From positions 2,273-66,272 of the forward strand of contig CAYTWI010000004.1 in NCBI GenBank assembly GCA_964442045.1: a stretch of 64,000 nucleotides of DNA, in the 5' to 3' direction. This stretch comes from an uncultured Bifidobacterium sp. GTDB taxonomy: Bacteria > Bacteroidota > Bacteroidia > UKL13-3. Below, in pieces: positions 4,651 to 64,000 of this stretch. Every line of letters begins with the position of its first letter. Within the stretch, counting starts at the first letter, position 1. A program made the translations under genes and the position numbers. Below the pieces are notes generated by a model. That model was not told where the DNA came from, ran no database searches, and saw only the letters and a list, made by a program, of their open reading frames with translations.

Positions 4651-4818
4651 TAGCTATATTATTTTGGCAAGAATTAAATAAAATATTACAAAACAACAAA
4701 ATAAAGTTAACCACCTCAGGCTTCATAGGTTCTCTAAAACCATTACTGATGGTGTTGTTCATAGTAAATTAAAAGTTTGCTAGTTGTACCTAAAATATAT
4801 ATTTGCCTAAAAACTAAT

Positions 4819-5145: not shown

Positions 5146-5198
5146 CTAAGGCTTGTTAATAAAAACAAGTAGCTGACTAAAAAGAACAATAAACCAGA

Positions 5199-6299: not shown

Positions 6300-6316
6300 A
6301 ATTGTTACCTCACTGC

Positions 6317-46000: not shown

Positions 46001-46007
46001 TTATTGG

Positions 46008-46826
46008 ATGATTCTAATGAGAAAAAGTATCCTATTCATAATACTTGCATTTGCATTTATACAGACAAACTTATTTTCCCAACCATCAGGTATAATTAAT
46101 CGAAAAGACACAGCAATCTTTCACCAATTTGGACAAACAGTTTTCCCTTTTAGCTACAATGGCAAAATGGGCTTAATTGATAACAATAACAAAATAGTTT
46201 TACCCGCAATTTATTCAAGAATAGGTTATATTTATGACAACTACAGATCCTATAGCATAGATGGAAAGGAAGGGTTTCTTAAAGTTAATGGAGACATATT
46301 AATTGAAGCTATATACGACAAAGTTGGATATTTCTCTGATGGAATTGCATATGTTAAGGCTAATAGAAAAGTAACATTTATTGATACAAGCGGAAAAATG
46401 ATTTGTCAATGGTTTGATGAAACTTATTCATTCCAAAACAACTTTGCGTCTGTAAGACTAGGCAATAAATGGGGAGCAATTAGCAAATCAGGCAAAGTCA
46501 TTGTTGAAATAAAATACCAACATGTAGCAGCATTTTCTAAATATGGTTTGACAAGAATAAAACTCAATAATAAGTACGGCTATGTTAACTCAAATGGAGC
46601 AGTAACAATTCCAATTAATTTTTCAGATGCATCACATTTCTTTGATGATTTATGCGCAGTTAAAAGGGGTGGAAAATGGGGGTTTATAGATACTAATGGT
46701 AATATGATTATTCCTTTTCAATATAGAAAAGCTAATTCCTTTAGCAAAGGAGCATTATATACTTCTGTGAAAGTTGGACTCTTTAAATGGGAGCGAATAA
46801 ATAGAAAAGGAGAAATCGTAAAATAG
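46008..46826 (+). CDS. WG-repeat (KWG) containing secreted protein
   Basis: Repeated …G(K)WG(A/F)I(D/S)..G…I… units (KWGAISKSGKVIVE, KYGYVNSNGAVTIP, KWGFIDTNGNMIIP) and a signal peptide. Confidence 0.6.
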   Translation: MILMRKSILFIILAFAFIQTNLFSQPSGIINRKDTAIFHQFGQTVFPFSYNGKMGLIDNNNKIVLPAIYSRIGYIYDNYRSYSIDGKEGFLKVNGDILIEAIYDKVGYFSDGIAYVKANRKVTFIDTSGKMICQWFDETYSFQNNFASVRLGNKWGAISKSGKVIVEIKYQHVAAFSKYGLTRIKLNNKYGYVNSNGAVTIPINFSDASHFFDDLCAVKRGGKWGFIDTNGNMIIPFQYRKANSFSKGALYTSVKVGLFKWERINRKGEIVK

Positions 46827-46838
46827 CTACTTTATAGA

Positions 46839-47180
46839 ATGAAAGAAATAGACATCCATAAAATCATCAAGCAATTCATAAAACATGCAAACGCTTTTGA
46901 TGTAGAGGCAGCACTCACTTTATTTGCTCCTGATGCCGTAATTGATGATGTATCCGTTGGCGAAAAGTTTAAAAACGCCAACGGTGTACGCAAATATTTG
47001 GAAACCTATTTTGTGGGTTACAAAACAGTAACTAAATTAGAATCTGTTGAAGTAACTGACAACAAAAACGCCAAAGCACAAGTTGATTTTACAGGTAACT
47101 TCGGGCATGAAACAGGGGGCTTAGACTTCACTATAAATAATGATGGATTGATAACTTTAATAAGTGCTTATCTGGATTAA
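46839..47180 (+). CDS. NTF2-like/SnoaL-like small protein
   Basis: 113 aa with …LFAPDAVIDDVSVGEKF… consistent with the SnoaL_2 fold. Confidence 0.55.
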   Translation: MKEIDIHKIIKQFIKHANAFDVEAALTLFAPDAVIDDVSVGEKFKNANGVRKYLETYFVGYKTVTKLESVEVTDNKNAKAQVDFTGNFGHETGGLDFTINNDGLITLISAYLD

Positions 47181-47209
47181 AGTCAGATAAACAACTTGGA
47201 GTGACCTTA

Positions 47210-47947
47210 TTAAATATCAGTGGGATAAATTCTTTTTTCAACCATCCATGTAATAGCTTTTACTATTTCATCTTCTGAAAATTTTTGTTTATGAGAAGAC
47301 CATGCATACACTTTTTTAACAATTAGATTATTACTAAAAATCTCTTTCTTATTAAGAACTTCAGTCCAACATGCATAGATAGTCGCTATTAACTCAATCT
47401 CCTGTGTTTTAGTTTTTCTAAATGTCTCAATAAGCAACTCTATTCCTAAAAGATATTCTGAATAATATTTTTCATACCATTCTTTATGGCCACCTATATT
47501 TTCTAATGGTTTATACTTTGGAAAAGTATCCGTTGAATTAAATTCAAACCATTTGTGTTCCTTAAACTGTTTATCCAAAGACCTCATCAAAACAGGATCA
47601 TATGGCCCCATTGCTTGTTTTAGAAAATTTACATGAATAGGCATTTTCTCAACTTGTTGACATAAATATATTAGTTTTTGAAGTTTTAAATGTCCAATCG
47701 TCCATTCATCTTTCAGCCTATAAACTATTTCAGCAGCAAGAACTGTTCTTTTATGGTAATCAATACGTGTAATAGAAGTATTTGATTTCCTTATTGACTT
47801 AAGTATTTTTTCTGGATTGATTGCATTAGCATTTGCTTCATATGAATAATCCTTATAAATTTCATTAAAAAGCCTCAATTCTTCTGAATTTTCGGGCAAC
47901 CCATAACCTAATGAGTTAAAAAAACTATCTAAATCAATCTCTTTCAT
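47210..47947 (-). CDS. Panacea (DUF4065, SocA-like antitoxin) domain protein
   Basis: 245 aa. The central …GHLKLQKLIYLCQQ…AMGPYDPVLMRSL… matches the Panacea consensus (h-LKLQKLlYyaq … GPv.P.ly). It has an N-terminal ~80 aa and a C-terminal ~100 aa of unknown function. Its ATG overlaps the upstream sigma gene's stop (ATGA). Confidence 0.6.
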   Translation of the reverse strand: MKEIDLDSFFNSLGYGLPENSEELRLFNEIYKDYSYEANANAINPEKILKSIRKSNTSITRIDYHKRTVLAAEIVYRLKDEWTIGHLKLQKLIYLCQQVEKMPIHVNFLKQAMGPYDPVLMRSLDKQFKEHKWFEFNSTDTFPKYKPLENIGGHKEWYEKYYSEYLLGIELLIETFRKTKTQEIELIATIYACWTEVLNKKEIFSNNLIVKKVYAWSSHKQKFSEDEIVKAITWMVEKRIYPTDI

Positions 47948-48600
47948 TTAGTCACACTCATTTTTAAAATTTCTAACCCTTGATTTATTTTGTCAATTGC
48001 TTCCTTTTTATAAGCTCTAATAGTAGTTTGCTTTATATCACCTAAATAATGTCTCAGCTCCGCTTGAAGTTTTTTAGGTAAGTTACACCCAAGTTTTTCA
48101 TACGCTTTATAAGTTAGATAAACAACTCTATGACTGTCGGGCAAAGACTGTATAATACTATATTTAAGTTTGTTTTCAGCATCCAGCCTATCTATAGGAA
48201 TATCTGGCATATTTACAATAATTGTTTCGTTACCATCATAATAATGTCCAAGTCTTTTTTTCTCTTGCTGTCTATAATAATTAATTAACTCATTTTTACT
48301 TATCCTATATAAATATATCTGAAAAGATTCATCAATTGTTTTTCCTTTAGCTTTTAAAGGGTTGAAATCAAAAGTACCAGTTTGAGCATATGCTTTAAAT
48401 GTATTTTCTGCTATAATTTCTGCTACGTCAGGCCCATGTCCATATCGTTTACAGCTAATTTCACATTTTTTCAATAAATCTTCTCTGAATCTATGAACCA
48501 GAATGATAAAGGCACTATCTCTATCAGGCTCCAATTTATTTTGAAACAACCTAATAAGTTCTTCTGAACTTTTGCTATTTAATATTTCAAGGCTATTCAT
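47944..48600 (-). CDS. Sigma-70 family (ECF-like) RNA polymerase sigma factor
   Basis: 218 aa with a region-2-like N-terminus (…FIILVHRFREDLLKK…) and a region-4 HTH at the C-terminus (…RVVYLTYKAYEKLGCNLPKKLQAELRHYLGDIKQTTIRAYKKEAIDKI…). AT-rich. Confidence 0.6.
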   Translation of the reverse strand: MNSLEILNSKSSEELIRLFQNKLEPDRDSAFIILVHRFREDLLKKCEISCKRYGHGPDVAEIIAENTFKAYAQTGTFDFNPLKAKGKTIDESFQIYLYRISKNELINYYRQQEKKRLGHYYDGNETIIVNMPDIPIDRLDAENKLKYSIIQSLPDSHRVVYLTYKAYEKLGCNLPKKLQAELRHYLGDIKQTTIRAYKKEAIDKINQGLEILKMSVTK

Positions 48601-48802
48601 ACTTATACATAAAAGCGTTGGTCACGCTTTTCGTAGTCAATTAGAGAACTCAAACATAAGCATTAAATACAAAATAATAAAAGTGATAAAAAAGAACAGT
48701 AATTCACAAATAATTCAAGGCTATAGTGCTAAGAATCAACAGCAGGTGATGCCTATACACCTTAATGTTATAAGCTATTTTTCCACTATAACTATTTTAT
48801 TT

Positions 48803-48958
48803 ATGAATATACAAAAAACATCGAATAATCAAGTTCAAATATGCAAAAACGACCTCTGTATTAACGCTGAAGGTAAATATGCAGAAGCCATTTCCAAAGC
48901 CATCATAGTTATGATGCTTTTATATGGTGCGGCAGCTTTGATTAAAGCTATCCGTTAG
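48803..48958 (+). CDS. Small peptide (51 aa; MNIQKTSNNQVQICKNDLCINAEGKYAEAISKAIIVMMLLYGAAALIKAIR), hypothetical
   Basis: Divergent from the sigma gene. It ends directly before a hairpin (GGTGAGTA-TTCT-TACTCACC + TTTCTC) at 48966-48985 that would terminate a + strand transcript. The C-terminal half is hydrophobic. Confidence 0.25.
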   Translation: MNIQKTSNNQVQICKNDLCINAEGKYAEAISKAIIVMMLLYGAAALIKAIR

Positions 48959-49018
48959 TAAATTAAGGTGAGTATTCTACTCACCTTTCTCAAAATTTCA
49001 ACTTAATTTTAAAAATCA

Positions 49019-49354
49019 ATGAATAATCCAAAATTTACAATTTACAAAAGCACAGTTAATTCTCAATACTATTATCGCTTACGCGCTAAAAACGGAGAAA
49101 TCATCTTAAATGGTGAAGGTTATACAACCAAACAAGGTTGTCTTAACGGAATCGCATCTGTCAAACAAAATGCTCCATATGACATCAGATATGACCGTAA
49201 AGATAGTTACAGCAACTATACGTTCAATCTAAAATCTTCAAATGGAGAAATCATTGGAAGAAGCGAAAACTACACAAGTTCCGCTTCTAGAGAGAATGGA
49301 ATTGCTGCAGTAAAAGCTGATGCTCCTAACGCTCCAACCGAAGACTTAACTTAA
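49019..49354 (+). CDS. YegP/DUF1508 (UPF0339) tandem-domain protein
   Basis: 111 aa with two repeats of the F.(I/L)(Y/K)..(S/N)…G.YY..L(K/R)(A/S).NGE(I)I (YegP) pattern. Confidence 0.7.
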   Translation: MNNPKFTIYKSTVNSQYYYRLRAKNGEIILNGEGYTTKQGCLNGIASVKQNAPYDIRYDRKDSYSNYTFNLKSSNGEIIGRSENYTSSASRENGIAAVKADAPNAPTEDLT

Positions 49355-49382
49355 AAATATTAAATTTAAGTCTACTCTAAAT

Positions 49383-49416
49383 GCAAAAAAGGCTTACATT
49401 TTCATGTAAGCCTTTT
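49383..49416 (+). terminator. Rho-independent terminator (AAAAAAGGCTTACAT-TTTC-ATGTAAGCCTTTTTTAT)
   Basis: Perfect 9-bp stem with a T6 tract, right after the yegP-like stop. Confidence 0.55.
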
Positions 49417-49435
49417 TTATGAATCAATATTCCCC

Positions 49436-49480
49436 CATACAACCTCCCACTATCAATAATCTCTACTTGCTTACCCATGT
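49436..49480. repeat. Diverged duplicate of the 3' terminus of the DEAD-box helicase gene (direct repeat partner of 50172-50215)
   Basis: CCCCCATACAACCTCCCACTATCAATAATCTCTACTTGCTTACCCAT versus CCCTCTTACATCCGCTCACTATCAATAATCTCTACCTGTTTACCCAT at 50172-50215. Its reverse complement encodes …NMGKQVEIIDSGRL… versus the authentic …KMGKQVEIIDSERM*. Confidence 0.55.
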
Positions 49481-49631
49481 TTATAGGGTACTTTGTTCCT
49501 CAGGCAGCAATTAAATACGCATGGGTGTATTTATACCAGTGGGTAAAACAAGCCACACAAAGCAATGAATACAGGGGTATTGAAGCCTCAGCAATCAATC
49601 GGGATGTGTAGCATCTTTATTGCATAGGTGT

Positions 49632-50150
49632 ATGACAATGATTAGACAAATAATTTATTTATGCCTGCTTGTAAGTGCCATTTCATGCATGCCGGATGAG
49701 GAAAGAATAGTCAATGACGATACATTGAATGAAACAGATAAACATTTTTTAAGGGAAGCAGGATTGGCAAACATGGCGGAGCTTGATGTAGCACAGTTAG
49801 CCATGACAGATGCCAACCACGACTCCGTTCAAATGTTTGCCGTGATGATGAACCGCGACCACCTGCAAGCCTATGATGAACTGCAAACACTGGCATTGAA
49901 TTTCGGCATCACTGTTTCGCAGGAGCCCGATGAAAACCATAAACAAATAAAACAACAACTGATGGGACAATCAGGGCCGGCCTTTGACAGCAACTATATG
50001 GAGAAACAGATAACTGACCATGAAAATACCATCAGTTTATTTGAAACAGAAGTAAACGGTGGGCAAAACCAGCAGGTAATGTTTTATGCCAATAAATACC
50101 TGCCTGGTCTCAGGTTGCGTTTAGCAAAAGCACAAAACATGGAAATGTAA
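49632..50150 (+). CDS. DUF4142-like (ferritin-like) predicted periplasmic/outer-membrane protein
   Basis: MTMIRQIIYLCLLVSAISC (lipoprotein-like signal) followed by two helical repeats (…DKHFLREAGLANMAELDVAQLA… / …DSNYMEKQITDHENTISLFE…). The track ORF starts at TTG 49620. Confidence 0.55.
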   Translation: MTMIRQIIYLCLLVSAISCMPDEERIVNDDTLNETDKHFLREAGLANMAELDVAQLAMTDANHDSVQMFAVMMNRDHLQAYDELQTLALNFGITVSQEPDENHKQIKQQLMGQSGPAFDSNYMEKQITDHENTISLFETEVNGGQNQQVMFYANKYLPGLRLRLAKAQNMEM

Positions 50151-51409: not shown

Positions 51410-52540
51410 TTAATGTGTATCCAACTCGCTTATTTTACCCCAAACCTTTTTATAAGGCTTTAACTCCTCTTTTCCTTTACCTGTTATTTTCAGGTGGGCA
51501 ATATGGGCAGCAATGGCTTTCAATACGGTAGGATACTCAATATATTTGATATTGTATTGGGCACACAATGTTTTTACCAGCTTATTAATAGCCGGGTAGT
51601 GTATATGGCTGATGCGGGGAAAAAGATGATGCTCCACCTGGAAATTTAATCCGCCCACAAACCAGGAAACCATTTTGCTTTCAGTAGCAAAGTTAGCAGT
51701 AGTAGAAAGCTGGTGCACATACCAGTTTTCGTCAATTTTATGCGTAAGCGCATCAGGCATGGGAAAAGCTGCTTCATCCACCACATGAGCCAGCTGAAAT
51801 ACTATACTCAGTGTTAAGCCACAAACAGCACAGGCAATGGCATAGCCAGTAAGAGCAGGCACCCAACCCAATACCCATGCAGGCACTATAATAAATATAA
51901 CAAAATAAGCCACTTTACTCAACCAGAAACCAATATGCTCATGCTTTTGCATAGCAGGTATTTTCTTATCAGCAATCTTGCCCGAAAAATATTTATTAAA
52001 ATCTCTTACGGCCACCCAAAGAATATAGGTTAAGGTGTACAACAAAAAGCAGTAAATATACTGATAGCGATGATACCAGTAAAGGGGCTGGTTCTCGTTG
52101 GTACGGATAAAAGGTTTAATGTCTATATCATCGTCATGCCCTTCAATATTGGTATAGGCATGGTGCATTACATTGTGTTTTACTTTCCACAGAAAAGAAC
52201 TGCCACCCATTACATTCAATGAATAACTCATCAAGTCATTCACCCATTTTTTACTGGAGTAGCTGCCATGTGCCCCATCGTGCATTACATTAAAGCCAAT
52301 GGCGGCAAAGGTTAAACCCATTACAATACACAGAAGTATATTAACCCATACGGGTGTTATGTTGCTTAATAAAAGTATGTAAATAAACAAGGCTATAGCT
52401 ACCAGCACCAATGTTTTGTAATAAAGCCACCAGCTGCCTGTTAACTTTATCTGTTTATCGGTAAAATAAGCATCTACCTCCTTTTTTAATGCTGCGGAGA
52501 AAAGGGTACTGTTCTTATTAAAAGAAATATGTTTACTCAT
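51410..52540 (-). CDS. Membrane fatty-acid desaturase family protein
   Basis: 376 aa with three His boxes (HDGAHG, HNVMHH, QVEHHLFP) and 4+ TM helices. Confidence 0.8.
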   Translation of the reverse strand: MSKHISFNKNSTLFSAALKKEVDAYFTDKQIKLTGSWWLYYKTLVLVAIALFIYILLLSNITPVWVNILLCIVMGLTFAAIGFNVMHDGAHGSYSSKKWVNDLMSYSLNVMGGSSFLWKVKHNVMHHAYTNIEGHDDDIDIKPFIRTNENQPLYWYHRYQYIYCFLLYTLTYILWVAVRDFNKYFSGKIADKKIPAMQKHEHIGFWLSKVAYFVIFIIVPAWVLGWVPALTGYAIACAVCGLTLSIVFQLAHVVDEAAFPMPDALTHKIDENWYVHQLSTTANFATESKMVSWFVGGLNFQVEHHLFPRISHIHYPAINKLVKTLCAQYNIKYIEYPTVLKAIAAHIAHLKITGKGKEELKPYKKVWGKISELDTH

Positions 52541-52622
52541 GGTATTTTACTTTTTGTAATAAAGGTTCAAAACAAAAACAAACTATGTTGAGGTATTTTT
52601 CTGAATAAGCTTAAGCTGGTAT

Positions 52623-53246
52623 TTACCGCAAACTTTTGCGCCTGCCTTTAACGGCTATTTTACCGTCTCCATCCTGGTAATCAATTAAATTTTCAAGTGC
52701 AATACGTTTGCGTTTTTTAAGCGTTTTAAAAAAGTTTGGCGACAATCCTGTTACCTTTTTAAACTGATTTGAAAAATGAGGCAAACTGCTGTAATGAAGC
52801 TTAAAACAAATTTCCTTTAAGCTTAACTCGCCATAAATAATAAGCTCTTTGGCACGTTCTATTTTATTGATGATAATAAACTGTTGTAAGGTAGTACCCG
52901 TTACTTCCGAAAACAAATTGGCTAAATAAGTATAATCACACGCAAGCCTTTTGCTCAGGTATTCAGAATAATTTTCTTCAGGAGGTTCGTCAGAGTAATG
53001 TATCATTTCAATAATAGCATTTTTTACTTTCTCAATATGTATGGCCTTTTTATCCTCCATTAGTTCGTGGCCATTTTTAAGCAATGAGGCTCTTATTTTG
53101 TCAAATTGCTCCATTGATATTTTTTGCTGCACTTCAAGCTCCCCCAACTCTATCCGCGATATTTTAATCCCTAACTTATTAAACTCTTCTTTAACCATTA
53201 ATTTGCAACAATGGCTCACCATATATTTTATATATAATTTCATCAA
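52623..53246 (-). CDS. AraC-family transcriptional regulator
   Basis: 207 aa with a C-terminal AraC-type double HTH (…LSLKEICFKLHYSSLPHFSNQFKKVTGLSPNFF…). Confidence 0.65.
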   Translation of the reverse strand: MMKLYIKYMVSHCCKLMVKEEFNKLGIKISRIELGELEVQQKISMEQFDKIRASLLKNGHELMEDKKAIHIEKVKNAIIEMIHYSDEPPEENYSEYLSKRLACDYTYLANLFSEVTGTTLQQFIIINKIERAKELIIYGELSLKEICFKLHYSSLPHFSNQFKKVTGLSPNFFKTLKKRKRIALENLIDYQDGDGKIAVKGRRKSLR

Positions 53247-53534
53247 ATGCCTCCTTTTTTGCGGGACGCAATTAATACCATAAGCATTGGCAAACAGTTA
53301 CACTTAAATTTTAATTAGTTACATAATTCCTGAAGTGCAAAAACGCCTGGCTTTTCAATCAGGTAACTCTGTAAAACAAGCAGATAGCATGAAAGAAAAA
53401 TAGTTAAGGCGTGCACAAGCATTTAAAACGACTATGCATGCAGGATAAACGAGCAGGGCAAAAAAGCTGTGGAGGAGCAAAAGCAAAGGAATGAGTATTT
53501 CTACAATCCGCTATTGACAAACTTGGTTTAAAAC

Positions 53535-53568
53535 AAAAAAGACCTGCATGGCTGCAAGTCTTTTTTTG
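53535..53568 (-). terminator. Terminator hairpin downstream of tRNA-Glu (GACCTGCA-TGGC-TGCAAGTC, flanked by A/T runs)
   Basis: 8-bp stem with one mismatch, and T-tracts on both strands. Confidence 0.45.
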
Positions 53569-53578
53569 TTACCTTCTT

Positions 53579-54536: not shown

Positions 54537-54673
54537 ATAGTTTGTACTTTATTAAGGTATTTTAAAAAATGCAAATAAAAGAAATAATATGGTTGTTTCA
54601 ATGTATCGGTTATGTAGGTTTATAAGTTATTGGTTGAATGGTTAAATTGCTTGAATTGTTCACCAAATTATTG

Positions 54674-54796
54674 CCATTGTTGGTATTCTTCACCAACAAG
54701 CTTATGCCAGCGGTTTCCTTCCATTTACTGCCCGTGGTTGGTGTCCTCACCAACCATAAGTTGAACGATTGGTGAGGACACCAACCATGGACAAAG
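54674..54796. repeat. Copy A of the nested-palindrome repeat family (hairpin CATTGTTGGTATTCTTCACCAACAAG + 36-nt spacer + GGTTGGTGTCCTCACCAACC-N15-GGTGAGGACACCAACC)
   Basis: Near-identical to copy B (58234-58356) over about 75 nt, and contains two independent long inverted repeats. Track ORF 54610-54858 (-) is an in-repeat translation. Confidence 0.6.
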
Positions 54797-54852
54797 TTTA
54801 CTGCAAGCCCCTGCCCTATACAATAAATACCATAAATGAATACATTTGTTTT

Positions 54853-57849
54853 ATGCAATTACTAGTAAAGGCAGCCTGTTTTTTTTGTTTACTTATTGGT
54901 ACCTGTTTACCGGTAAAGGCGCAGCAGCCTTATATGTGGCATTTAACCGATGAAGATGGTTTGCCCAGTATGGAGGTATATAGCGTGTTTGAAGACAACA
55001 AGGGTTATATGTGGTTTGGTACTGATAATGGGGTATGCCGTTTTGATGGTTTTGAAATGAAAAACTATTACAGTAACCAACAAAGGGGTAAATCGTTTTC
55101 GCATTTTATACAGGATAACAAAGGGCGTATATGGTGTATTAATTTTGCCGGGCAAATATTCTATATTGAAAATGACTCTTTAAAACTGTTTGAACCTTTT
55201 GAAAAGGTTTATAAATCGAGTTTTCCGCGCTACTGTTTCGATAACAAAAACCAGTTATGGATTATTTCCATTAACAACCCTATTTACTATTATAATTTTG
55301 AAACACAAACGCTTAATAGTTTTAAGCAGTTATTCTTCCCGTTTACCGTAAACATTGTAGCCGACAAAAAGGGTAATGTATTAGTTGCAGCCGACAGTGT
55401 TTACTATATCAGTAATGGTAAACTTAGACATGCAAAACATAAATACTCTGCTATTGAATACTCCAAATACGATGACATCATTTATTTTATAAAGAAAATT
55501 AAAAATCAGATTTTTAGTATTGATGCCTTTGATGGTCAGAAACAATATACATTGAATACCGATGCTATTAAAAGTAATAAAGCCCTGTTTACTGACTTTG
55601 TTTCGTTTGATGAAAACGACAGGTGGTTTTTAACCTACGATGGAGCTTATGTATTTAGTGCAGATAAAAACAAATCGAAACTGTACGCACATGTTTTAAA
55701 AGGTAATGCGGTGTCGTGGGTTATTAAAGATAAGGAAGGTAATTACTGGGTGAGTACCTTAAAAAATGGCGTGTTTGTTATTCCCTCCAAAAATATATGG
55801 TTAATGAACAGCAGCAATTCTCTGCTGGGGTCGGACAGGGTTAGCAGCATAGTTGAAGACAAGAATGGACTTTTATACCTGGCCTCCGGAATTGGTAATA
55901 TTGTAACTTTTGATACCGAAAAAAAACAGTTATTACACTCCATTAGGCTGGAAAAAGAAAGCAAAGATATAGATGCATTGTCCATTGATAAAACAAACAA
56001 CCGTCTGTATGCCTACTCTTCTAAAAGTTATATTTATGACTTGAAAACAAAACGTTATGTAAATACTTATTCAAATTTTTCGGCCGTAAAAGATTATTCA
56101 TTCGACAAGTATGGAAACTATTTTCTGGCTACTTCTTATGCAGCTTTTTTTGTACTGAGTAATGATAAGGACCGCTCATCGCCCTTTTGCAAATACCTTA
56201 ACTTTACAAAAACAATTGCTGACCCTTCCGGCAACTATAAAATACTTACAGCGGCTATGTTAAGAGGCCAGCGAACCACATCATGCATGGTTAACAATGA
56301 AGACACAAGCCTTTGGGTTGCGTATGTAGATGGCTTATACCGTTACCATAATGGAAAGGTTGATTTAATGCTGGATAAAAACAAGCGGCCTGTTAATGCT
56401 ACTGATATTGTATTAGCGCCTGATGGTAAGGTATGGATAAGTACTATACAGCAGGGTATTATCAGTTATTACGGAAACAAAATTGTTGACCAGTTTACTA
56501 CAGGTAATGGATTACTTTCTAATTTTAACAGGTGTATTGCAGCCAGCCAGTATGCCATTTGGTTTGCAGGCGAAAAAGGCGTGCAGGCTTATTTACTGCA
56601 ACAAAAAAAACTAATTCATTTTACACGGGAAGAAGGGTTAGTCAGTAACGATGTATTGGATATACATTTAAAAGATAACTTTATTTACCTGGCTACTTCC
56701 AAAGGCTTTCAATGGTTTGAACAAAACAAAATAATTACACCTAAACACCAGCCGGGTATCCATATTATATCATTATCGGTTAACAATGCTTTGGTAAATA
56801 CCAACGCGGATATAAAAGCAGCTTATAACGAAAACAATATTGATTTTTACTATATAGGTATAGCACAACGCAGCCGCAGTAAATTACATTATGCTTACCG
56901 CTTAATTGGTATTGATACCAACTGGACCCATGTATCGTATAAGGAGCGGGTAGCCAAGTATAATTTATTGCCCCCGGGCACTTACCGTTTTCAGGTAAAG
57001 GTAATTAATAAGGATGGTATTGAAAGCGATATAGCACAATCAAACCTCATAACCATTGCAGCGCCCTACTGGCAAACATGGTGGTTTGTAAGCTTGGCAG
57101 CCATGGCTTTAATATTGGTGGTGAGTTTGCTTTTTTTATACCGCATAAAAATAATAAGCAACCGCAACAAGCTGGAAAGGGAAAGAGCCAAACTGGCTAT
57201 TGACTTAAGGGCCTCACAACTATCGGCACTTAAAATACAAATGAACCCGCACTTTATATTTAATGCCCTTAACTCCATACAGGAATATATTTTAACCAAC
57301 GAAAAAAAACTGGCCAACAGTTACCTCGGTAAGTTTAGTGATTTGATGCGTTTGTATTTGGACATGAGCAACAAAAAAAGCATATCGCTGGATGAAGAAA
57401 TAAAAGCCATGCAACTATACCTGGAGTTGGAAGCCATGCGCTTTGAAGAGAAGTTTAACTACAGCTTACAGGTAGCTCCCGACTTACAGGCAGAACATAT
57501 TATGATTCCTCCCATGATTATACAACCCTATGTGGAGAATGCTTTTAAACATGGTTTGTTGCACAAAAGGAGCGACAGGCAAATAACAGTAAGCTTTAAA
57601 CAAGGTACATTGCCCAACACACTGGTATGCGAAGTATACGATAATGGTATAGGTCGCCAGCAATCAATGGAGCTGAATAAAATACGCCACCGTAAACATG
57701 CTTCATTTTCTACCGGTGCCGTACAAAAAAGATTAGAGCTGTTGAACGCGGAACGTAACCAACAGATAGGTGTGGTATATGAAGACTTATACCATACTGA
57801 TGGCAATCCTGCGGGCACCAGAGTAACTATAACGGTTCCGTTTGATTGA
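54853..57849 (+). CDS. Hybrid sensor: periplasmic Reg_prop beta-propeller repeats + Y_Y_Y domain + TM + LytS/YehU-type histidine kinase (His_kinase + HATPase_c)
   Basis: A signal peptide MQLLVKAACFFCLLIGTCLPVKAQQ follows the ATG at 54853. Propeller repeats (…GYMWFGTDNGVCRFDG…), a Y_Y_Y-like …YAYRLIGIDTNWTHVS…, a TM WWFVSLAAMALILVVSLLFLY, then …QMNPHFIFNALNSIQEYIL… (PF06580-type H-box) and a C-terminal ATPase. The track ORF begins inside the repeat at TTG 54769. Confidence 0.8.
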   Translation: MQLLVKAACFFCLLIGTCLPVKAQQPYMWHLTDEDGLPSMEVYSVFEDNKGYMWFGTDNGVCRFDGFEMKNYYSNQQRGKSFSHFIQDNKGRIWCINFAGQIFYIENDSLKLFEPFEKVYKSSFPRYCFDNKNQLWIISINNPIYYYNFETQTLNSFKQLFFPFTVNIVADKKGNVLVAADSVYYISNGKLRHAKHKYSAIEYSKYDDIIYFIKKIKNQIFSIDAFDGQKQYTLNTDAIKSNKALFTDFVSFDENDRWFLTYDGAYVFSADKNKSKLYAHVLKGNAVSWVIKDKEGNYWVSTLKNGVFVIPSKNIWLMNSSNSLLGSDRVSSIVEDKNGLLYLASGIGNIVTFDTEKKQLLHSIRLEKESKDIDALSIDKTNNRLYAYSSKSYIYDLKTKRYVNTYSNFSAVKDYSFDKYGNYFLATSYAAFFVLSNDKDRSSPFCKYLNFTKTIADPSGNYKILTAAMLRGQRTTSCMVNNEDTSLWVAYVDGLYRYHNGKVDLMLDKNKRPVNATDIVLAPDGKVWISTIQQGIISYYGNKIVDQFTTGNGLLSNFNRCIAASQYAIWFAGEKGVQAYLLQQKKLIHFTREEGLVSNDVLDIHLKDNFIYLATSKGFQWFEQNKIITPKHQPGIHIISLSVNNALVNTNADIKAAYNENNIDFYYIGIAQRSRSKLHYAYRLIGIDTNWTHVSYKERVAKYNLLPPGTYRFQVKVINKDGIESDIAQSNLITIAAPYWQTWWFVSLAAMALILVVSLLFLYRIKIISNRNKLERERAKLAIDLRASQLSALKIQMNPHFIFNALNSIQEYILTNEKKLANSYLGKFSDLMRLYLDMSNKKSISLDEEIKAMQLYLELEAMRFEEKFNYSLQVAPDLQAEHIMIPPMIIQPYVENAFKHGLLHKRSDRQITVSFKQGTLPNTLVCEVYDNGIGRQQSMELNKIRHRKHASFSTGAVQKRLELLNAERNQQIGVVYEDLYHTDGNPAGTRVTITVPFD

Positions 57850-57864
57850 TGATTTTTGATGTAT

Positions 57865-57894
57865 GATTTATGAAATAATAAGTATGTTTGAATT
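57865..57894 (+). promoter_or_regulatory. Conserved promoter-like module GATTTATGAAATAATAAGTATGTTTGAATT (Bacteroidota -7 box TAnnTTTG = TATGTTTG)
   Basis: The same module recurs at 61266-61304 and 62141-62179, and partially at 60678-60692. TATGTTTG matches the published Bacteroidetes sigma-A -7 consensus. The start codon lies 6-15 nt downstream. Confidence 0.4.
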
Positions 57895-57899
57895 TACCT

Positions 57900-58196
57900 A
57901 TGGCAACTATACTTATATTAATCTTTGCAATAGCTGCATTTGTAATTAAAACGTTGGATTTTGAAGTGGGTCGTCAGAATAGACGTGATTATTACAGAAA
58001 CGACTATCTTAAATCCGATGCATGGCAACGAAAGCGTTACGTAGTAATGAAAAGAGATAACTGGCGCTGCGTATATTGTGGTGCTCGCGCTACACAGGTT
58101 CATCATAAGAGATATGCTAAAAGAAATATTGGTAAGGAACCTATTGATTGGCTTGTTTCTGTATGCAAACCTTGTCATGATGCTCAACATAATTAA
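57900..58196 (+). CDS. Small HNH endonuclease (YajD-like) with N-terminal TM helix
   Basis: 98 aa. MATILILIFAIAAFVIK (TM) is followed by …RDNWRCVYCGARATQVHHKRY…SVCKPCHDAQHN, an HNH motif with its Cys/His zinc-finger pairs. Confidence 0.65.
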   Translation: MATILILIFAIAAFVIKTLDFEVGRQNRRDYYRNDYLKSDAWQRKRYVVMKRDNWRCVYCGARATQVHHKRYAKRNIGKEPIDWLVSVCKPCHDAQHN

Positions 58197-58233
58197 TATC
58201 CCTATAAATGATTAGCACATTAATTATTTCCCA

Positions 58234-58356
58234 CCCTTGTTGGTGTTCTTCACCAACAAGCTTATGCCAGCGGTTTCCTTCCATTTACTGCCCGTGGTTG
58301 GTGTTCTCTCCAATTGCTAAACCTATGGTTGTTGAGGACACTAACCGCAGACAAAG
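58234..58356. repeat. Copy B of the nested-palindrome repeat family
   Basis: CCCTTGTTGGTGTTCTTCACCAACAAGCTTATGCCAGCGGTTTCCTTCCATTTACTGCCCGTGGTTGGTG… is identical to copy A over the first ~75 nt. Track ORF 58208-58396 is an in-repeat translation. Confidence 0.6.
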
Positions 58357-58624
58357 CCTATATACAGGTTTAAATATCTGTATTAAAACCCAATAACGGG
58401 TATAAATAACTGTTTTTACAAACAGGCATTTATCCTCTTATACAGCCCTTTATATTACTGCAAATTTGTACCCATAAAGCTTTATAAAAAGTGGAGCAGA
58501 ACCCACTTTCATCCTGAGCACTGAGCTTGCCAAAGTATTGAAGGATTAAAAAACGGACTGGCTGTAACAGTTTAAAAACAGGGCGGTATCTGAAAAGCCT
58601 TATGAGTAGGGAAATTTTTATACT

Positions 58625-59710
58625 ATGGATAACATCATTGCAATTTATACCCGTTCGGGGTATCCTTCTTCAAATGTTACAAAATACATTTCAGACTACG
58701 CAGGTACTCCTGTTAATACGTTAATTATAAGTGGACCGAATGGTTACAATGGAGGTATTGTATACAACGATCCCCCATATCCCATGTTTAACTCAAGCGG
58801 TGATTATACCGGTGATGCAAATTGGGCATCCAGTTTAACCCAACTGAAAAATAACACGAACATTACCAATATATTCTTCTCTATCGGGAACAGTGCAATC
58901 AGTGCGCTGGCCGCAATGGATTCGAGTAATTTGAACAATGTATTGGTAAGCCTGAAGAATAGTGGAATTACCGGTGTTGATATTGATGCCGAAAATTGGG
59001 GTCAAGCTGGTGGCTTGGACCCAATGGATCCTGCAGTTCAAAAGGTTACACTTGCAGTTATTCAAGTTGGTTTAGCGCTAACAGCTGCCCCGTATAATAA
59101 TGTTTCCGGTTGGCAGTCATGGCAAACCTTTGTGAATAACAATGGTGGAAACATTTCATGGTTTAATGTACAATGTTATGCAGGTGGTCAATATAATGAC
59201 CCCGTTCAGGATTGGTACACTCAGTTTACACCATCAGTTCCTATTGTGGCAGGATTTGAGGCCACTAATTCAGGATCAGATGGAGGACAATTGACTCCAA
59301 CGCAAGCACTGCAACAGTTACAATCATGGCAAAGTGAATTGCCTCAAAACAGCCTTGCCGGAGCATTCGTTTGGGAATTTAGCCTTATTCTTGACGGAGG
59401 AAACACAGTATCAGCTTATGCAACTGCCATGAACGAAGGCTTGAATACGTACTATGCAACTTACACCTTAACTCCCGGAGGAGCATTAGTTCCTGATGCG
59501 ATTCGTGTTGCCTCAAATTTAAACGTAAACATCTATATCAATAATAGCCAGACAGATTCTGTTATTGGGCAGTTTGCAGGAACTCCAGAAGTAACCTGTC
59601 CTGCCGGAAATACTACGTTATTATACTCCATGAATGGCGGCAACTTGGGATTGATTGACTATATCAATGTCACTTCTCTTGGTTTGTCATCGTCTCTGAT
59701 TTGGGAGTAA
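58625..59710 (+). CDS. GH18-like (chitinase-fold) protein with degenerate catalytic motif
   Basis: 361 aa. …NSGITGVDIDAENW… resembles the GH18 DxxDxDxE box (here TGVDIDAE, with the first Asp replaced). Gly/Asn/Ser-rich. Confidence 0.45.
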   Translation: MDNIIAIYTRSGYPSSNVTKYISDYAGTPVNTLIISGPNGYNGGIVYNDPPYPMFNSSGDYTGDANWASSLTQLKNNTNITNIFFSIGNSAISALAAMDSSNLNNVLVSLKNSGITGVDIDAENWGQAGGLDPMDPAVQKVTLAVIQVGLALTAAPYNNVSGWQSWQTFVNNNGGNISWFNVQCYAGGQYNDPVQDWYTQFTPSVPIVAGFEATNSGSDGGQLTPTQALQQLQSWQSELPQNSLAGAFVWEFSLILDGGNTVSAYATAMNEGLNTYYATYTLTPGGALVPDAIRVASNLNVNIYINNSQTDSVIGQFAGTPEVTCPAGNTTLLYSMNGGNLGLIDYINVTSLGLSSSLIWE

Positions 59711-59828
59711 TCATGCTACATCTCTAAAACCTCTTAATTGAAGCGGATAAACTTTCGAAAAAGGGCGTTTACAGCAGTAAATGAGAATTTTCTAGATAAG
59801 TCCAACGATAAAATGGAGGTTTTTTACG

Positions 59829-59929
59829 CTCTTGTTGGTGTTCTTCACCAACAAGTTTATGCCCGCTGTTATTGTCCTCACCAATCGCTAAACCTATGGT
59901 TGGTGAGGACAATAACTATGGACAATCAG
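59829..59929. repeat. Copy C of the repeat family (hairpin CTCTTGTTGGTGTTCTTCACCAACAAG + TGTCCTCACCAATCG…GGTTGGTGAGGACA palindrome)
   Basis: Shares the first hairpin and the terminal 17-bp-stem palindrome with A and B, but lacks the internal 36-nt segment. Track ORF 59738-59932 is an in-repeat translation (CPHQSLNLWLVRT mirrors CPHQSFNLWLVRT from copy A on the other strand). Confidence 0.6.
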
Positions 59930-60026
59930 TAAGCAATTGTAAAATTTATTGATTAGCACACTGTTCGTTTTTTATTCAGAAAAAAGTTCAGAACTATGCA
60001 ATCATAAATTAACGGAAACATTTTAC

Positions 60027-60662
60027 ATGTACAATCTGCCACACCACAAAGAAAATAATCCGCAAATTATTAAGGAGTTTATAGCTAAATATCCGTTTGC
60101 ATTTGTAAGCGGATGCGATGCTGAAAACAAACCCATTGCCACACAAATACCGCTGTTTATTGAAGAAGAAAACGGCAAGCGTTTTTTAAGAGGCCATATC
60201 ATGAAAGATACGGACCATCATAAAGCATTTGTACACAACAATAATATACTGGCTGTTTTCACAGGCCACCATACTTATGTAAGTGGTACCTGGTACAGCA
60301 ACCCGCACATTCCTTCTACCTGGAACTATATGAGCGTGCATGTAAAGGGAACCATTCAGTTTTTAGATGATGATGCCTTAGCCCGTGTATTGAGAAAGGT
60401 AAGCCTGCACTTTGAAAACTACAATGAAGCATCCACCACCATTTATGATAACTTACCCGCTGATTTTATAAAAAGAGCCACACCATACATAGTAGCTTTT
60501 GAAATAGAAATAACAGAAATAGACACTGTGTTTAAACTGAGTCAGGACAGAGATTACGAAAGCTATAAAAACATTATAGCAAAACTGCAACAACAGGATG
60601 AAGCAGGGCGGGTTATTGCTGCCGAAATGGAAAGCAGGATTACTCAGGTGTTTCCTGGTTGA
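60027..60662 (+). CDS. PaiB-family FMN-binding negative transcriptional regulator
   Basis: MYNLPHHKENNPQIIKEFIAKYPFAFVSG…LRGHIMKDTDHHKAF… is the PaiB signature. The track ORF extends upstream to 59949. Confidence 0.7.
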   Translation: MYNLPHHKENNPQIIKEFIAKYPFAFVSGCDAENKPIATQIPLFIEEENGKRFLRGHIMKDTDHHKAFVHNNNILAVFTGHHTYVSGTWYSNPHIPSTWNYMSVHVKGTIQFLDDDALARVLRKVSLHFENYNEASTTIYDNLPADFIKRATPYIVAFEIEITEIDTVFKLSQDRDYESYKNIIAKLQQQDEAGRVIAAEMESRITQVFPG

Positions 60663-60698
60663 TGATTTTTGATTCGTGATTTATGAAATAATATTCCG

Positions 60699-60726
60699 CC
60701 CTTATTGGTGTTATTCACCAACAAGT
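60699..60726. repeat. Copy D (solo hairpin GCCCTTATTGGTGTTATTCACCAACAAG)
   Basis: The first hairpin of the family only, preceded by a partial promoter module (GATTTATGAAATAAT). Confidence 0.5.
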
Positions 60727-60742
60727 TTCTTAATTGTAAATT

Positions 60743-61195
60743 ATGACTATACTAAAAGTAAATACAGACGACCATGAGATTTTGACTAACATCACCAAAA
60801 AGTCGAAAGCCTATTGGGGATACACGCAAGAGCAAATAGACGCGTGGTCGGAGTTATTGACTATTGCTAAAAACTATATTGAAACCCACCAGGTATTTAA
60901 ATTAGTCATTAACAATACTACTATTGCTTATTATGCTTACTGCTATTTGGATAATGATACCGTTAAGCTTGACAACCTGTTTGTACTGCCTGAATATATT
61001 GGCAGTGGCTTTGGCAAACTACTGATGCATGATTTTATTGATACGATAAAAAAGACTGAAACAAAAAAAATAGTATTGGATTCGGAACCCAATGCCCAAG
61101 CCTTTTATGAAAAGTTTGGTTTCATCAAAGTAGGGCAATTGAAAACAAGCATTAAAGACCGGTACTTACCCATTATGGAGCTAACAGTAATATAA
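60743..61195 (+). CDS. GNAT family N-acetyltransferase
   Basis: 150 aa with …LFVLPEYIGSGFGKLLMHDFID… (motif A, Q/R-x-x-G-x-G/A) and …AFYEKFGF…. Confidence 0.7.
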   Translation: MTILKVNTDDHEILTNITKKSKAYWGYTQEQIDAWSELLTIAKNYIETHQVFKLVINNTTIAYYAYCYLDNDTVKLDNLFVLPEYIGSGFGKLLMHDFIDTIKKTETKKIVLDSEPNAQAFYEKFGFIKVGQLKTSIKDRYLPIMELTVI

Positions 61196-61210
61196 AATTA
61201 AACATAAAAT

Positions 61211-61304
61211 AATTCCGCCCTTGTTGGTGTTCTTCACCAACAAGTTCTAGCCGCTGAGCTACATAATGATTTTACATTTATGAAATAATGGGTATGTTTG
61301 AATT
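61211..61304. repeat. Copy E: hairpin (CCGCCCTTGTTGGTGTTCTTCACCAACAAG) + AGCCGCTGAGCTACATAATGATTTTACATTTATGAAATAATGGGTATGTTTGAATT promoter-like module
   Basis: About 85% identical over about 90 nt to copy F (62088-62179). Confidence 0.55.
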
Positions 61305-62068
61305 ACAACAATATTGCAAACAATAAACAATTGAACCGTAAAATAAAAATAACATTACTGAGTTTATTGCTCCTGTTGACAGCAGGGCTAATAGCTTTTA
61401 CTGCAACTAAAAATATTGTTGATGAACAGATTCTTACATACACAGTTGATACAAGGACACAAGATTTAAAACTGTATTGGAAAGACGATAAAGGAGAACC
61501 TCTTAAAAGCCTTCAACATTTAAAGACTTATGTAGAGAGCAAAAAACTTACACTTACTTTTGCCATGAATGGTGGCATGTTCAATACTGACTTTTCACCA
61601 CAAGGGTTATTTATTCAGAATAAAAACATACTTGCGCCTTTAGACACATCAGACGGGAACGGGAATTTTTATTTAAAGCCCAATGGTGTTTTTTACATTA
61701 CTGTAAACAATGTTCCTTCTATTTGTAAAACGACTGACTTTATAGCTAATAATAACATTAAATACGCAACCCAATCAGGGCCTATGTTGGTTATTAACGG
61801 ACAAATTCATGAAGCATTTAAAGAAGGCTCTAACAATTTAAATATAAGAAATGGTGTCGGCATTCTGCCTGACAACAAAGTGGTATTTGCCATGTCAAAG
61901 ACAGCCATTAACTTTTACGATTTTGCCAAATATTTCCAAAGCTTAGGGTGTAAAAACGCATTGTATCTGGATGGGTTTGTATCAAGAACATACTTACCGG
62001 AAAAACAATGGGTACAAACTGACGGAAATTTTGGTGTTATAATTGGCGTTACAACTAAGAAAAATTAA
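61298..62068 (+). CDS. Phosphodiester glycosidase (DUF2233/NAGPA-like) family protein, N-terminal membrane anchor
   Basis: …KLTLTFAMNGGMFNTDFSPQGLFIQNKN… and …KNALYLDGFVS… fit DUF2233. It has no in-frame ATG near the 5' end. The ORF would begin at TTG 61298 (inside the TATGTTTG box) or TTG 61331. Confidence 0.55.
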   Translation: MNYNNIANNKQLNRKIKITLLSLLLLLTAGLIAFTATKNIVDEQILTYTVDTRTQDLKLYWKDDKGEPLKSLQHLKTYVESKKLTLTFAMNGGMFNTDFSPQGLFIQNKNILAPLDTSDGNGNFYLKPNGVFYITVNNVPSICKTTDFIANNNIKYATQSGPMLVINGQIHEAFKEGSNNLNIRNGVGILPDNKVVFAMSKTAINFYDFAKYFQSLGCKNALYLDGFVSRTYLPEKQWVQTDGNFGVIIGVTTKKN

Positions 62069-62087
62069 CTACAAACAAAAACATATT

Positions 62088-62179
62088 TCATGCCCTTATC
62101 AGTGCGCTTCACCAATAAGTTATAGCCATTGAGCTACATAATGATTTTACATTTATAAAATAATAAGTATGTTTGGATG
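62088..62179. repeat. Copy F: degenerate hairpin (CCCTTATCAGTGCGCTTCACCAATAAG) + AGCCATTGAGCTACATAATGATTTTACATTTATAAAATAATAAGTATGTTTGGATG
   Basis: Paralogous to copy E. Its hairpin is eroded. Confidence 0.5.
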
Positions 62180-62976: not shown

Positions 62977-64000
62977 ATGAAATTACAACATAAACAAATA
63001 GCCATAGTGGGCGGTGGCCCGGGCGGATTAACATTAGCCAGACTTTTACAATTAAAGGGAGCCAGCGTAAAAGTATACGAAAGAGATTTAAATAAAAATG
63101 CCCGGGTGCAAGGCTCTCCGCTCGATTTGCATGATGAGTCGGGACTGGCAGCCATTACCGAGGCAAACCTGTTGGATGCATTTAAAAACAACTACATGCC
63201 CGGAGCCGACAGGGAGAAAATAATGAATGAACAGGCTGAAGTTTTTTTCAGCAGCCATGATACCAAGTCGGCCGACAACTTTGGGCATGCTCATTTTCGC
63301 CCTGAAATAGACCGCGGTGTTTTAAGAAAAATATTACTGGAATCATTACAACCTGAAACCGTGGTGTGGGATAGTCATTTTATAGCTATGGATAAACAAA
63401 ACGATGGTTGGTTATTACACTTTAAAAACAAAAACGATGTATATGCTGATATAGTAATTGCTGCTGATGGTGCCAACTCCAAAATACGTCCGTACCTTAC
63501 AGACATCAAGCCATTTTATTCGGGCATACTAATGCTGGAAGGCAATATATATGATGCCAAAAACGCAGCACCCCATATTACTTCATTGCTTAATGGCGGA
63601 AAAATTATGGCCTTCGGCAATGAAAAAGATATACTCATGGGCCAGAAAGGCAATGGTGAAATAGGCTTTTACATAAGCTTTAAGGCGGAAGAAAACTGGG
63701 CTGGTAAAAGCGGCTTAGACTTTAATGATAAAACACAGGTGCTTAACTGGTTTAAACAAACCTATAGCGAGTGGAGCCCCATTTGGCATGAGCTGTTTGA
63801 AAATACAGCCACCCCATTTATACCAAGGCCTATTTATTGTATGCCCTTAGACCAAACCTGGCAAGCCCAACCTAACCTCACCATGATTGGCGATGCGGCC
63901 CATGTAATGCCTCCCTTTGCTGGTGAAGGGGTAAACATGGCTATGCTTGATGCATTGGAATTAAGCAGGTGTTTAACGGCTGATGATAATAGTACTTTAC
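62977..64000 (+). CDS. FAD-dependent monooxygenase of the TetX / tetracycline-destructase family (3'-truncated by window end)
   Basis: [37 protein letters not shown]… (Rossmann GxGxxG) and …[31 protein letters not shown]… closely parallel the TetX motifs, as recalled from memory: …[29 protein letters not shown]… and …[27 protein letters not shown]… It is not in the ORF track because it is open-ended. Confidence 0.65.
   Translation, partial: [341 protein letters not shown]

Follow-up and report, generated by a model that had tools for sequence, protein, structure and literature searches.

A probable REP hairpin in the spacers of a variable accessory gene array of Bacteroidota

What is the short palindrome that recurs between the genes of a small array in a Bacteroidota genome, and has it any part in the gain and loss of those genes? 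The array lies towards the end of a 64-kb stretch of DNA (contig CAYTWI010000004.1 of assembly GCA_964442045.1), the whole of which is referred to here as the window, and it consists of co-oriented genes downstream of tpiA and a sensor histidine kinase (HK) gene. Its spacers hold six copies of a 28-nucleotide (nt) hairpin and several copies of a longer repeat, module P. We consider it likely that the hairpin is a repetitive extragenic palindrome (REP) belonging to the tyrosine transposases associated with REPs (RAYTs) of subclass 2.6 (group 5), lodged in the spacers of an accessory array in which the REP and P modules would be the joints.

The hairpin family and the associated transposase

The repeat has the form GCC-CTTGTTGGTG-TTCTT-CACCAACAAG, and its six co-oriented copies lie at 54.67-62.12 kb of the window. 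Folding analysis confirmed a 25-nt hairpin with a perfect 10-bp stem and a 5-nt loop. An initial annotation, made from the sequence alone, had placed six hairpins of about 27 nt at the right positions, but it read the loop as 6 nt, and its literal pattern has no match. Scanning with the pattern CTTGTTGGTGTTCTTCACCAACAAG and up to two mismatches gave matches at 54676, 58236, 59831, 60701 and 61220, all on the plus strand, and none in 100 shuffles. The sixth copy (62092-62119) has decayed, with mismatches at 6 of its 28 positions, and its stable fold has been lost. No copy was found in the other 56 kb of the window; by our own rough scan estimate, the probability of six points clustering in 7.5 of 64 kb is near 1e-4. 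All six copies from the source genome are within these 7.5 kb of the 64 kb examined, and the dispersal of the family was seen in other genomes.

The repeats of the array are listed below. They include second palindromes (doublets), the two halves of module P (a 5' S half and a 3' half), and comparisons with two related arrays, L206 and L208.

54673-54700, plus strand: REP copy 1 (GCCATTGTTGGTATTCTTCACCAACAAG), in the divergent spacer between tpiA and HK; orthologue in L206, none in L208
54729-54793, no strand assigned: doublet 1, with 25-nt arms that are 92% complementary; orthologous L206 site without a doublet
57847-57896, plus strand: module P copy 1, with the S half TGATGATTTTTGATGTATGATTTATGAAATAAT running from the HK stop codon and the 3' half aaGTATGTTTGAAT carrying a TAnnTTTG box
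58233-58260, plus strand: REP copy 2, 36 nt past the stop codon of the HNH gene; L206 orthologue at 13441
58289-58353, no strand assigned: doublet 2, decayed (from repeat comparison and fold)
59828-59855, plus strand: REP copy 3, 117 nt past the stop codon of a 361-residue gene
59860-59924, no strand assigned: doublet 3, with 17-nt arms that are 100% complementary; orthologous L206 site without a doublet
60660-60693, plus strand: S half only, fused directly to REP copy 4 as an "empty" S/REP junction; L206 has two extra genes here
60698-60725, plus strand: REP copy 4 (GCCCTTATTGGTGTTATTCACCAACAAG), from the pattern scan and alignment
61217-61303, plus strand: REP copy 5, an exact consensus, with linker B and module P copy 2
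62092-62178, plus strand: REP copy 6, decayed and without a stable hairpin, with linker B and module P copy 3

The last two segments share 85% identity.

Species-representative genomes scanned with a lightly degenerate 24-mer yielded at least 118 eight-kb tiles from at least 64 assemblies (counted by accession prefix). These represent several orders of Bacteroidota, with more than 118 exact matches where we estimate that chance would give about 0.03, and the suggestion that the repeat is specific to one genome does not survive this distribution. Among the matches listed, the carriers in Cytophagales were Chryseolinea, Chryseosolibacter, Ohtaekwangia, Roseivirga, Cyclobacteriaceae and Flammeovirgaceae, and further carriers were relatives of Chitinophagaceae, Pedobacter albus and one metagenome-assembled genome (MAG) labelled Flavobacterium. 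Chryseolinea serpens had the hairpin in at least 10 tiles.

Alignment of 139 non-redundant copies revealed a tag, G-C-C at positions -4 to -2, that lay outside the search pattern and is conserved at 93, 97 and 91%, respectively. A pyrimidine-rich run precedes the tag, a C follows the hairpin in 64% of copies, and the sequence beyond is random. The conserved unit is only about 32 nt and ends sharply. The pair at the foot of its stem shows covariation, with each of the four Watson-Crick types (C:G, T:A, G:C and A:T) represented. Two subtypes were distinguished, ttcc-GCC-C…G and yca-GCC-G…C, the latter being the source of the minus-strand copies in the relatives. Among the matches listed, 150 of 158 copies were intergenic, orientation in tandem gene contexts was unbiased (28 versus 31), and convergent spacers were favored over divergent ones (39 versus 17). 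Such intergenic, orientation-neutral placement is the pattern of a DNA element and not of an oriented RNA signal. Scans of IMG/VR with the REP alone, and with REP, linker and P together, matched no viral contig.

All reading frames of the at least 118 tiles were searched with E. coli YafM, which served as a lead only, and the matches were then checked by Pfam, NCBIfam and PDB. A protein of about 170 residues adjoins the hairpin in 18 of the at least 118 loci. It has the motifs NH[FI]H, WQ, YIHNNP and YSS, with H63, H65, W68, Q69, Y139 and S159/S160 invariant, and with scores of 91.5 and 86 bits it passes the cut-off of 80 for NF047646 of NCBIfam, "REP-associated tyrosine transposase". Two of the proteins reached 27.1 and 27.5 bits against 23 for Pfam Y1_Tnp (PF01797), others being weaker, and the best PDB match was 4ER8, the E. 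coli TnpA-REP (E = 2e-4). The protein collection holds at least 2082 relatives, several of them named RayT by their sources. At eight or more loci (L009, L023, L036, L070, L083, L087, L106 and L116) the gene is bracketed by inverted copies of the hairpin, tags outermost, 20-70 nt from the ends of the open reading frame (ORF), which is the signature that first revealed RAYTs (PMC2817692, PMC3116915). A tagged, intergenic palindrome that brackets a RAYT gene in other genomes upholds the part of the initial annotation that had called the repeat REP-like.

Quentin et al. 2018 (PMC6006769) described a TnpA-Y1 subclass 2.6, corresponding to group 5 in the RAYT scheme of Bertels et al. 2017, that is found mostly in Bacteroidetes, is about 179 residues long, has the motifs NH[LIV]H, WQ, YIH[QN]NP and SS, and has "atypical" REPs without a GT[AG]G tag. 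The supplementary table of that paper gives the REP GCCGTTGTTGGTGTTATCACCAACAACC for Runella slithyformis AEI49282.1, a member of subclass 2.6. Its tag and stem are like those of the window hairpin and its loop is one base shorter; the hairpin family has thus been recorded before. A full-text literature search for the hairpin sequence found no paper. The repeat can now be assigned to a little-studied class of Bacteroidota whose REPs had been recorded by manual inspection only. REPs have been stated to be species-specific (PMC6006769). This view is in conflict with a 28-nt REP that recurs letter for letter in dozens of genera beside an enzyme conserved at about 50% identity; the 28-mer is identical across genomes whose RAYTs share only 45-69%. 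We found no earlier description of such breadth, and a REP this conserved offers a clean substrate for biochemistry.

A second HUH/Y1 protein stands beside copies of this same REP in Ohtaekwangia and a near-identical MAG (L002 3992-4684 and L046 2458-3090). It has about 25% identity to the main family and scores 62.7 bits with NF047646, under the cut-off of 80.

The placement of the copies within the window is also consistent with selection on RNA, in which case the hairpins would be kept as 3'-end structures (stabilizers, attenuators or protein-binding sites), P would restart transcription, and the link to RAYTs would be secondary. We regard this explanation as unlikely. In its favor, five of the six copies sit 21-117 nt past the stop codons of co-oriented genes, each followed by P or the next gene, the stem is stable on folding, and E. 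coli REPs are reported, in background cited by PMC6006769, to stabilize mRNA and cause termination. However, a canonical T-tract is missing after five of the six hairpins; copy 4 alone has a T-rich tail and passes a loose terminator scan, and terminator-like sites are not enriched (6 versus 6.5 expected). The unbiased orientation in tandem contexts, taken over the at least 118 loci, also argues against an RNA-level element, as do the 3 of 11 L206 copies that point the opposite way. Between the window and L206, 12 of 140 positions (8.6%) in orthologous copies have changed, and every one of these changes leads away from the consensus; flanking non-coding DNA differs by about 10-11%. Thus, on these small numbers, individual REP copies seem to decay roughly neutrally. 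No Rfam family was found for the hairpin in the window (gathering threshold), the array (E <= 10) or ten multi-copy loci; apart from a tRNA and a DUF805 motif below threshold, Rfam gave no matches.

Gene content of the array in three genomes

The genes of the array and their presence in the compared genomes are as follows.

54853-57849, plus strand: sensor histidine kinase HK (Reg_prop, Y_Y_Y and His_kinase by Pfam; ATG at 54853 read from the sequence); in all three genomes
57900-58196, plus strand: small HNH nuclease gene; in L206, not in L208
58553-58616, plus strand: DUF805 RNA-like leader of the 361-residue gene (Rfam, just under threshold)
58625-59710, plus strand: 361-residue gene, core of a low-divergence, REP-bounded block; not in L208
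60027-60662, plus strand: PaiB-like FMN-binding protein gene (FMN_bind_2); in all three genomes
60743-61195, plus strand: GNAT acetyltransferase gene; in L206, not in L208
61298-62068, plus strand: NAGPA (phosphodiester glycosidase) gene, start uncertain; in L206, not in L208
62194-62949, plus strand: AraC-family regulator gene (DUF6597 and HTH_18); directly after PaiB in L208
62983-64000, plus strand: TetX-like FAD monooxygenase gene, running off the window end; follows AraC in L208 too

The earlier assignments held for the sensor kinase, HNH, PaiB, GNAT, NAGPA, AraC and TetX-like genes. The exception was a supposed GH18-like protein, the 361-residue ORF, for which no match was obtained in Pfam, NCBIfam or PDB.

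Module P is a repeat of about 50 nt, noted only in part by the initial annotation, with three full copies and one half copy in the array, none elsewhere in the window and none expected. Its S half, TGATGATTTTTGAT.TATGATTTATGAAATAAT, has stops in all three frames and starts at the upstream stop codon after HK and PaiB in the window, L206 and L208. The 3' half, rrGTATGTTTGAATG(TATAAATC), lies 10-60 nt before start codons and contains TAnnTTTG, which we take to be the Bacteroidota -7 promoter consensus. We infer that P acts as a promoter, in which case transcription would start about 7 nt after TATGTTTG. Among the approximately 1.7 Mb of DNA examined, P was confined to the arrays of the window, L206 and L208. 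Of the terminator and promoter modules that the initial annotation supposed the repeat to carry, the P repeat is real, but a terminator module is unproven, as five of the six hairpins lack a T-tract.

The array comparison comprises three genomes, the window, L206 (GCA_040384145.1) and L208, the latter two being found through their HK homologues (86% and 84% identical, respectively). Attempts to find others were not successful. The three tpiA homologues looked up (86-89% identical) lay in unrelated contexts without REP, 80 metagenome loci anchored on PaiB (696 kb, up to 83% identity) had no REP, P or common neighbors, and distant kinase homologues (59% and 54%) had no array and no REP.

The gene order in L206 is tpiA, HK, HNH, the 361-residue gene, PaiB, a methyltransferase, a 122-residue ORF, GNAT, a response regulator, a HisKA kinase, a 213-residue ORF, NAGPA, a 212-residue ORF, a 138-residue ORF and further genes, whereas in L208 it is tpiA, HK, PaiB, AraC, the TetX-like monooxygenase and further genes. 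The window is intermediate between the two, and tpiA-HK is kept in all three. L208 is without HNH, the 361-residue gene, GNAT and NAGPA, and L206 has at least seven extra genes. Every presence or absence difference in the array among the three genomes falls in a spacer with REP or P. These comparisons bear out the view of the region as a mosaic of accessory genes with repeats at its junctions. The opposite outcome, six genes in fixed order in relatives that have no repeats, was not observed, as gene content differs in L206 and L208 and both have REPs and P copies.

The repeats themselves also vary. L206 has 11 REPs (8 plus, 3 minus) and 6-7 P copies in 14 kb; in L208 there are a single full P and a half P, with REPs farther downstream. 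REP copy 1 is common to the window and L206 and missing in L208, the doublets after REP copies 1 and 3 occur in the window and not at the orthologous L206 sites, and a minus-strand REP lies between P and HNH in L206 where the window has none.

Two empty junctions were the best resolved. Behind PaiB in the window, ttccGCCC of REP copy 4 comes immediately after the end of the S half (…GAAATAATA); between those same points L206 has the remainder of P, two genes and a further REP-P. Behind HK in L208, the S half has the end …GAAATAATAAGTA. Next comes a short segment with GCCCTT in it, in our reading a decayed REP, and after it the leader of PaiB, at the position where the window and L206 hold HNH and the 361-residue gene. 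Both empty junctions have the end of the S half (…GAAATAAT) fused no more than 7 nt 5' of the REP tag. Direct repeats were sought at the two junctions and none were found. A third junction, between PaiB and AraC in L208, is a single P, as expected from either P-P recombination or a never-inserted state.

Divergence between the window and L206 was also uneven. At 4-fold sites it was 22% for tpiA, 42% for HK, 24% for HNH, 10.8% for the 361-residue gene, 39% for PaiB, 35% for GNAT, 53% for NAGPA and 29% for the DEAD helicase. The value for the 361-residue gene is lower than those for HK (p = 1e-12) and PaiB (p = 4e-6). Sliding identity was 95-99% from about 58340, after REP copy 2 and its doublet, to about 59740, before REP copy 3, and 84-91% in the flanks. 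These values fit a separate, more recent history for this REP-bounded block, and constraint on the DUF805-like leader could contribute to its low divergence.

Based on these observations, and by homology with the E. coli TnpA-REP, we propose that the HUH/Y1 enzyme would recognize 5'-tagged single-stranded DNA (ssDNA) hairpins, then cut and rejoin them. Near-consensus REP copies would spread in this way through intergenic DNA, where they would decay at about the rate of their flanks. Together with the lineage-specific P, REPs occupy the spacers of the co-oriented array downstream of tpiA and HK, and the REP and P modules would be joints where gene units are gained, lost or exchanged, possibly by recombination with DNA of relatives, by breakage adjacent to REPs or by the Y1 enzyme. 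Each unit would be driven separately by its P, with the REP hairpin marking its 3' side.

Several points weigh against this proposal, in which a causal role of REP and P in gene turnover is unproven. REP and P take up nearly all of the spacers, and a break anywhere between genes would therefore lie close to one of them. The lack of direct repeats at the empty junctions means that simple recombination between modules does not explain them. Upstream of tpiA, the window and L206 show three differences in gene content, two of which are without REP or P, and gene flux is therefore general in this lineage. The copies in the window are oriented like the genes and lie 3' of stop codons, where an RNA-level 3' element would look alike. 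No RAYT gene is present in the 64-kb window, the part of the source genome examined, and none in the L206 or L208 loci, so that for this organism the association is drawn from other genomes. The tag, GCC(C), differs from the canonical GT[AG]G, which excludes the canonical subclasses and not subclass 2.6. Lastly, binding and cleavage of a tagged ssDNA hairpin have been shown for the E. coli enzyme only (PMC3333891, PMC3479197), from which hairpin recognition by subclass 2.6 would have to be carried over.

The empty junctions invite a more active role for the enzyme, in which segments between same-strand REPs would be excised and integrated as ssDNA circles by a Y1 protein acting in trans, an integron-like capture. 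Single genes here are bracketed by same-strand hairpins, like the left-end and right-end hairpins of the IS200/IS605 insertion sequences (ISs), and two independent empty junctions are alike, each running from the S-half end to within 7 nt of the REP tag and free of repeats. In addition, a REP-bounded block has a divergence level of its own, and Ton-Hoang et al. proposed that TnpA-REP cleavage at distant sites could sequester whole genes (PMC3333891). Set against these points, the at least 118 REP loci have no homologues of the array genes, save distant HK paralogues (22-30% amino acid identity), and none of 80 PaiB-homologue loci carries a REP. The three compared genomes have no RAYT at these loci, the REP remains in the empty site, unlike an IS200/IS605 end, and gene flux without REPs occurs next door. 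We thus think mobilization of the units by a RAYT improbable. Similarly doubtful is the idea that the array is a dedicated capture site, which single-gene units enter between the S half and the 5' side of a REP by way of Y1 or another partner. If it were so, units would gain a standard promoter and a 3' REP, and the array would do in Bacteroidota what an integron does, but with HUH/REP chemistry.

As it stands, the window and its two relatives form a small natural experiment, with REP or P at every joint of an array that turns over by single genes. If the modules are causal, the array bears on whether REP/RAYT systems reshape gene content; if they are not, REPs have simply built up in a variable region of the ordinary kind.

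Composite forms and comparison with known systems

Three REP copies, at 54.67, 58.23 and 59.82 kb, extend into a second long palindrome with arms of 17-25 nt, as had been noted. These palindromes (54729-54793, 58289-58353 and 59860-59924) fold better than shuffled sequences, with z = -7.6, -3.8 and -8.5, respectively. Each is built of two variant-REP hairpins, GGTTGGTG-TCCT-CACCAACC together with the inverse form, placed as an inverted pair whose GCC-like tags lie on the outside, a structure that in its sequence corresponds to a compact doublet of a variant REP, similar to a REPIN (REP doublet forming hairpin). The long form of 100-125 bp (REP, linker and doublet) resembles a bacterial interspersed mosaic element (BIME). 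In other genomes, REPs are most often arranged as inverted pairs about 115 nt apart.

The inverted ends of the long form had been taken for the terminal inverted repeats of a miniature inverted-repeat transposable element (MITE), a DDE insertion sequence reduced by deletion and no longer autonomous. Both its length and its inverted ends would suit such an element, but the apparent terminal repeats arise because the long form contains three copies of one REP core. The parts are also independent of one another, as the REP occurs alone, the doublet is variable at orthologous sites, and long-form copy 3 has a 24-nt internal deletion. No target-site duplication was evident at the borders in aligned spacers, the conserved unit is only some 32 nt, and the associated gene encodes a Y1 enzyme. 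Based on these features we consider a MITE very unlikely.

A different composite was seen in L049 (MAG MFD04935.bin.2.85, contig_798), where seven tandem non-coding units of about 290-300 nt, each with one exact REP, occupy approximately 4080-6360. Neither ORFs nor Rfam matches were found in them, and they may represent an amplified BIME-like unit or a structured RNA not described before.

The layout of gene, palindrome and gene, with genes that are co-oriented, unrelated and variably present, had also been compared with an integron cassette array; an attC cluster without an integrase would look similar. attC sites have the order R''-L''…L'-R', span 57-141 nt, have extrahelical bases and carry GTTRRRY at the 3' end. 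The hairpin is instead a perfect 25 nt, with its GTT arm 5' and its AAC arm 3', the opposite order to R''/R'. When every ORF of at least 100 residues at 44.4-64 kb was scanned with Pfam, no tyrosine recombinase or integrase was found, and the divergent neighbor of HK is tpiA. The hairpin is furthermore scattered singly in many genomes, brackets a Y1 transposase and not IntI, and most units have a P of their own. An integron is hence hardly tenable, being the least probable of the explanations weighed here. Two other candidates, attenuator-type pairing between two hairpins and an operator site for a regulator, were dropped in view of a loop that is invariant, a tag that is asymmetric and the bracketing of RAYT genes.

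The closest known parallel is with the REP, REPIN and BIME elements of RAYT systems. Shared features are the short, tagged, intergenic palindrome, inverted copies that bracket a single HUH/Y1 gene of about 170 residues (a REPtron), doublets and mosaic composites, the protein motifs of subclass 2.6, and the near-identical REP of Runella slithyformis. The differences are the GCC(C) tag, the retention of the 28-mer across orders despite 45-69% RAYT identity, and the placement here of co-oriented singlets between single genes together with a promoter-like module, and not as the usual inverted pairs. The ends of IS200/IS605 elements, and the ISs that target REPs, similarly have a hairpin with an adjacent short tag recognized on one strand, but in this array there is no transposase or IS, and what is inserted are ordinary accessory genes. 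The finding that REPs are preferred DNA insertion sites was reported by Tobes & Pareja 2006 (PMC1525189).

Conserved flanking genes (here tpiA-HK), differing whole-gene cassettes and mosaic divergence are likewise found in the minimal mobile elements of Neisseria. Small repeats stand at the borders of those elements. The elements (Snyder et al. 2007) are defined, in PMC3082526, by homologous recombination that takes place, following transformation, in the conserved genes on either side. In contrast, the changes described here occur inside one array at REP/P spacers, and two junctions are without repeats for homologous recombination, though a block of mosaic divergence would fit such exchange. 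Compared to integrons, finally, the array shares co-oriented, unrelated, variable single-gene units each followed by a palindrome, and differs in having no IntI, no attC architecture, units with a promoter-like module, and a palindrome that belongs to a Y1-transposase system.

Neighboring genes and minor observations

The monooxygenase at 62983-64000 had Tet(X) as its best NCBIfam match, at 243 bits against a cut-off of 750, which points to a relative of the tetracycline destructases and not Tet(X) itself. The HNH gene encodes a 98-residue protein with a hydrophobic N-terminus that matches the HNH part of the IscB model only (33.9 bits, cut-off 175), and no HNH homologues were found near REPs in other loci. 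Directly upstream of the 361-residue ORF, a full-length match to RF03081, the DUF805 RNA motif, lies at 58553-58616 on the plus strand (47.4 bits versus a gathering threshold of 51.1, E = 2e-6). This leader is 98-99% identical in L206.

Farther upstream, 45981-50150 of the window holds a WG-repeat protein, two minus-strand ORFs of unknown function, DUF1508 and DUF4142, with no REP or P at its borders; opposite it, L206 4613-7502 holds DUF7079 and two unknown plus-strand ORFs. A fatty-acid desaturase gene and an AraC-type regulator gene lie at 51410-53246 on the minus strand, and the pair is also present in another relative, L050, with 88% amino acid identity. L206 is without this pair and has a consensus REP there, between the DEAD-box helicase and tRNA-Glu genes.

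A second small repeat, AAAACAAAAAAGACCTGCAT(G/T)GCTGCAAGTCTTT(G/T)T, was observed at 53530-53570 of the window, at about 8790-8825 of L206, and twice in the 2.4-kb L050 contig (187-228 and 2340-2378). It forms a hairpin with an A-run on one side and a T-run on the other, as a bidirectional terminator would, and adjoins tRNA-Glu.

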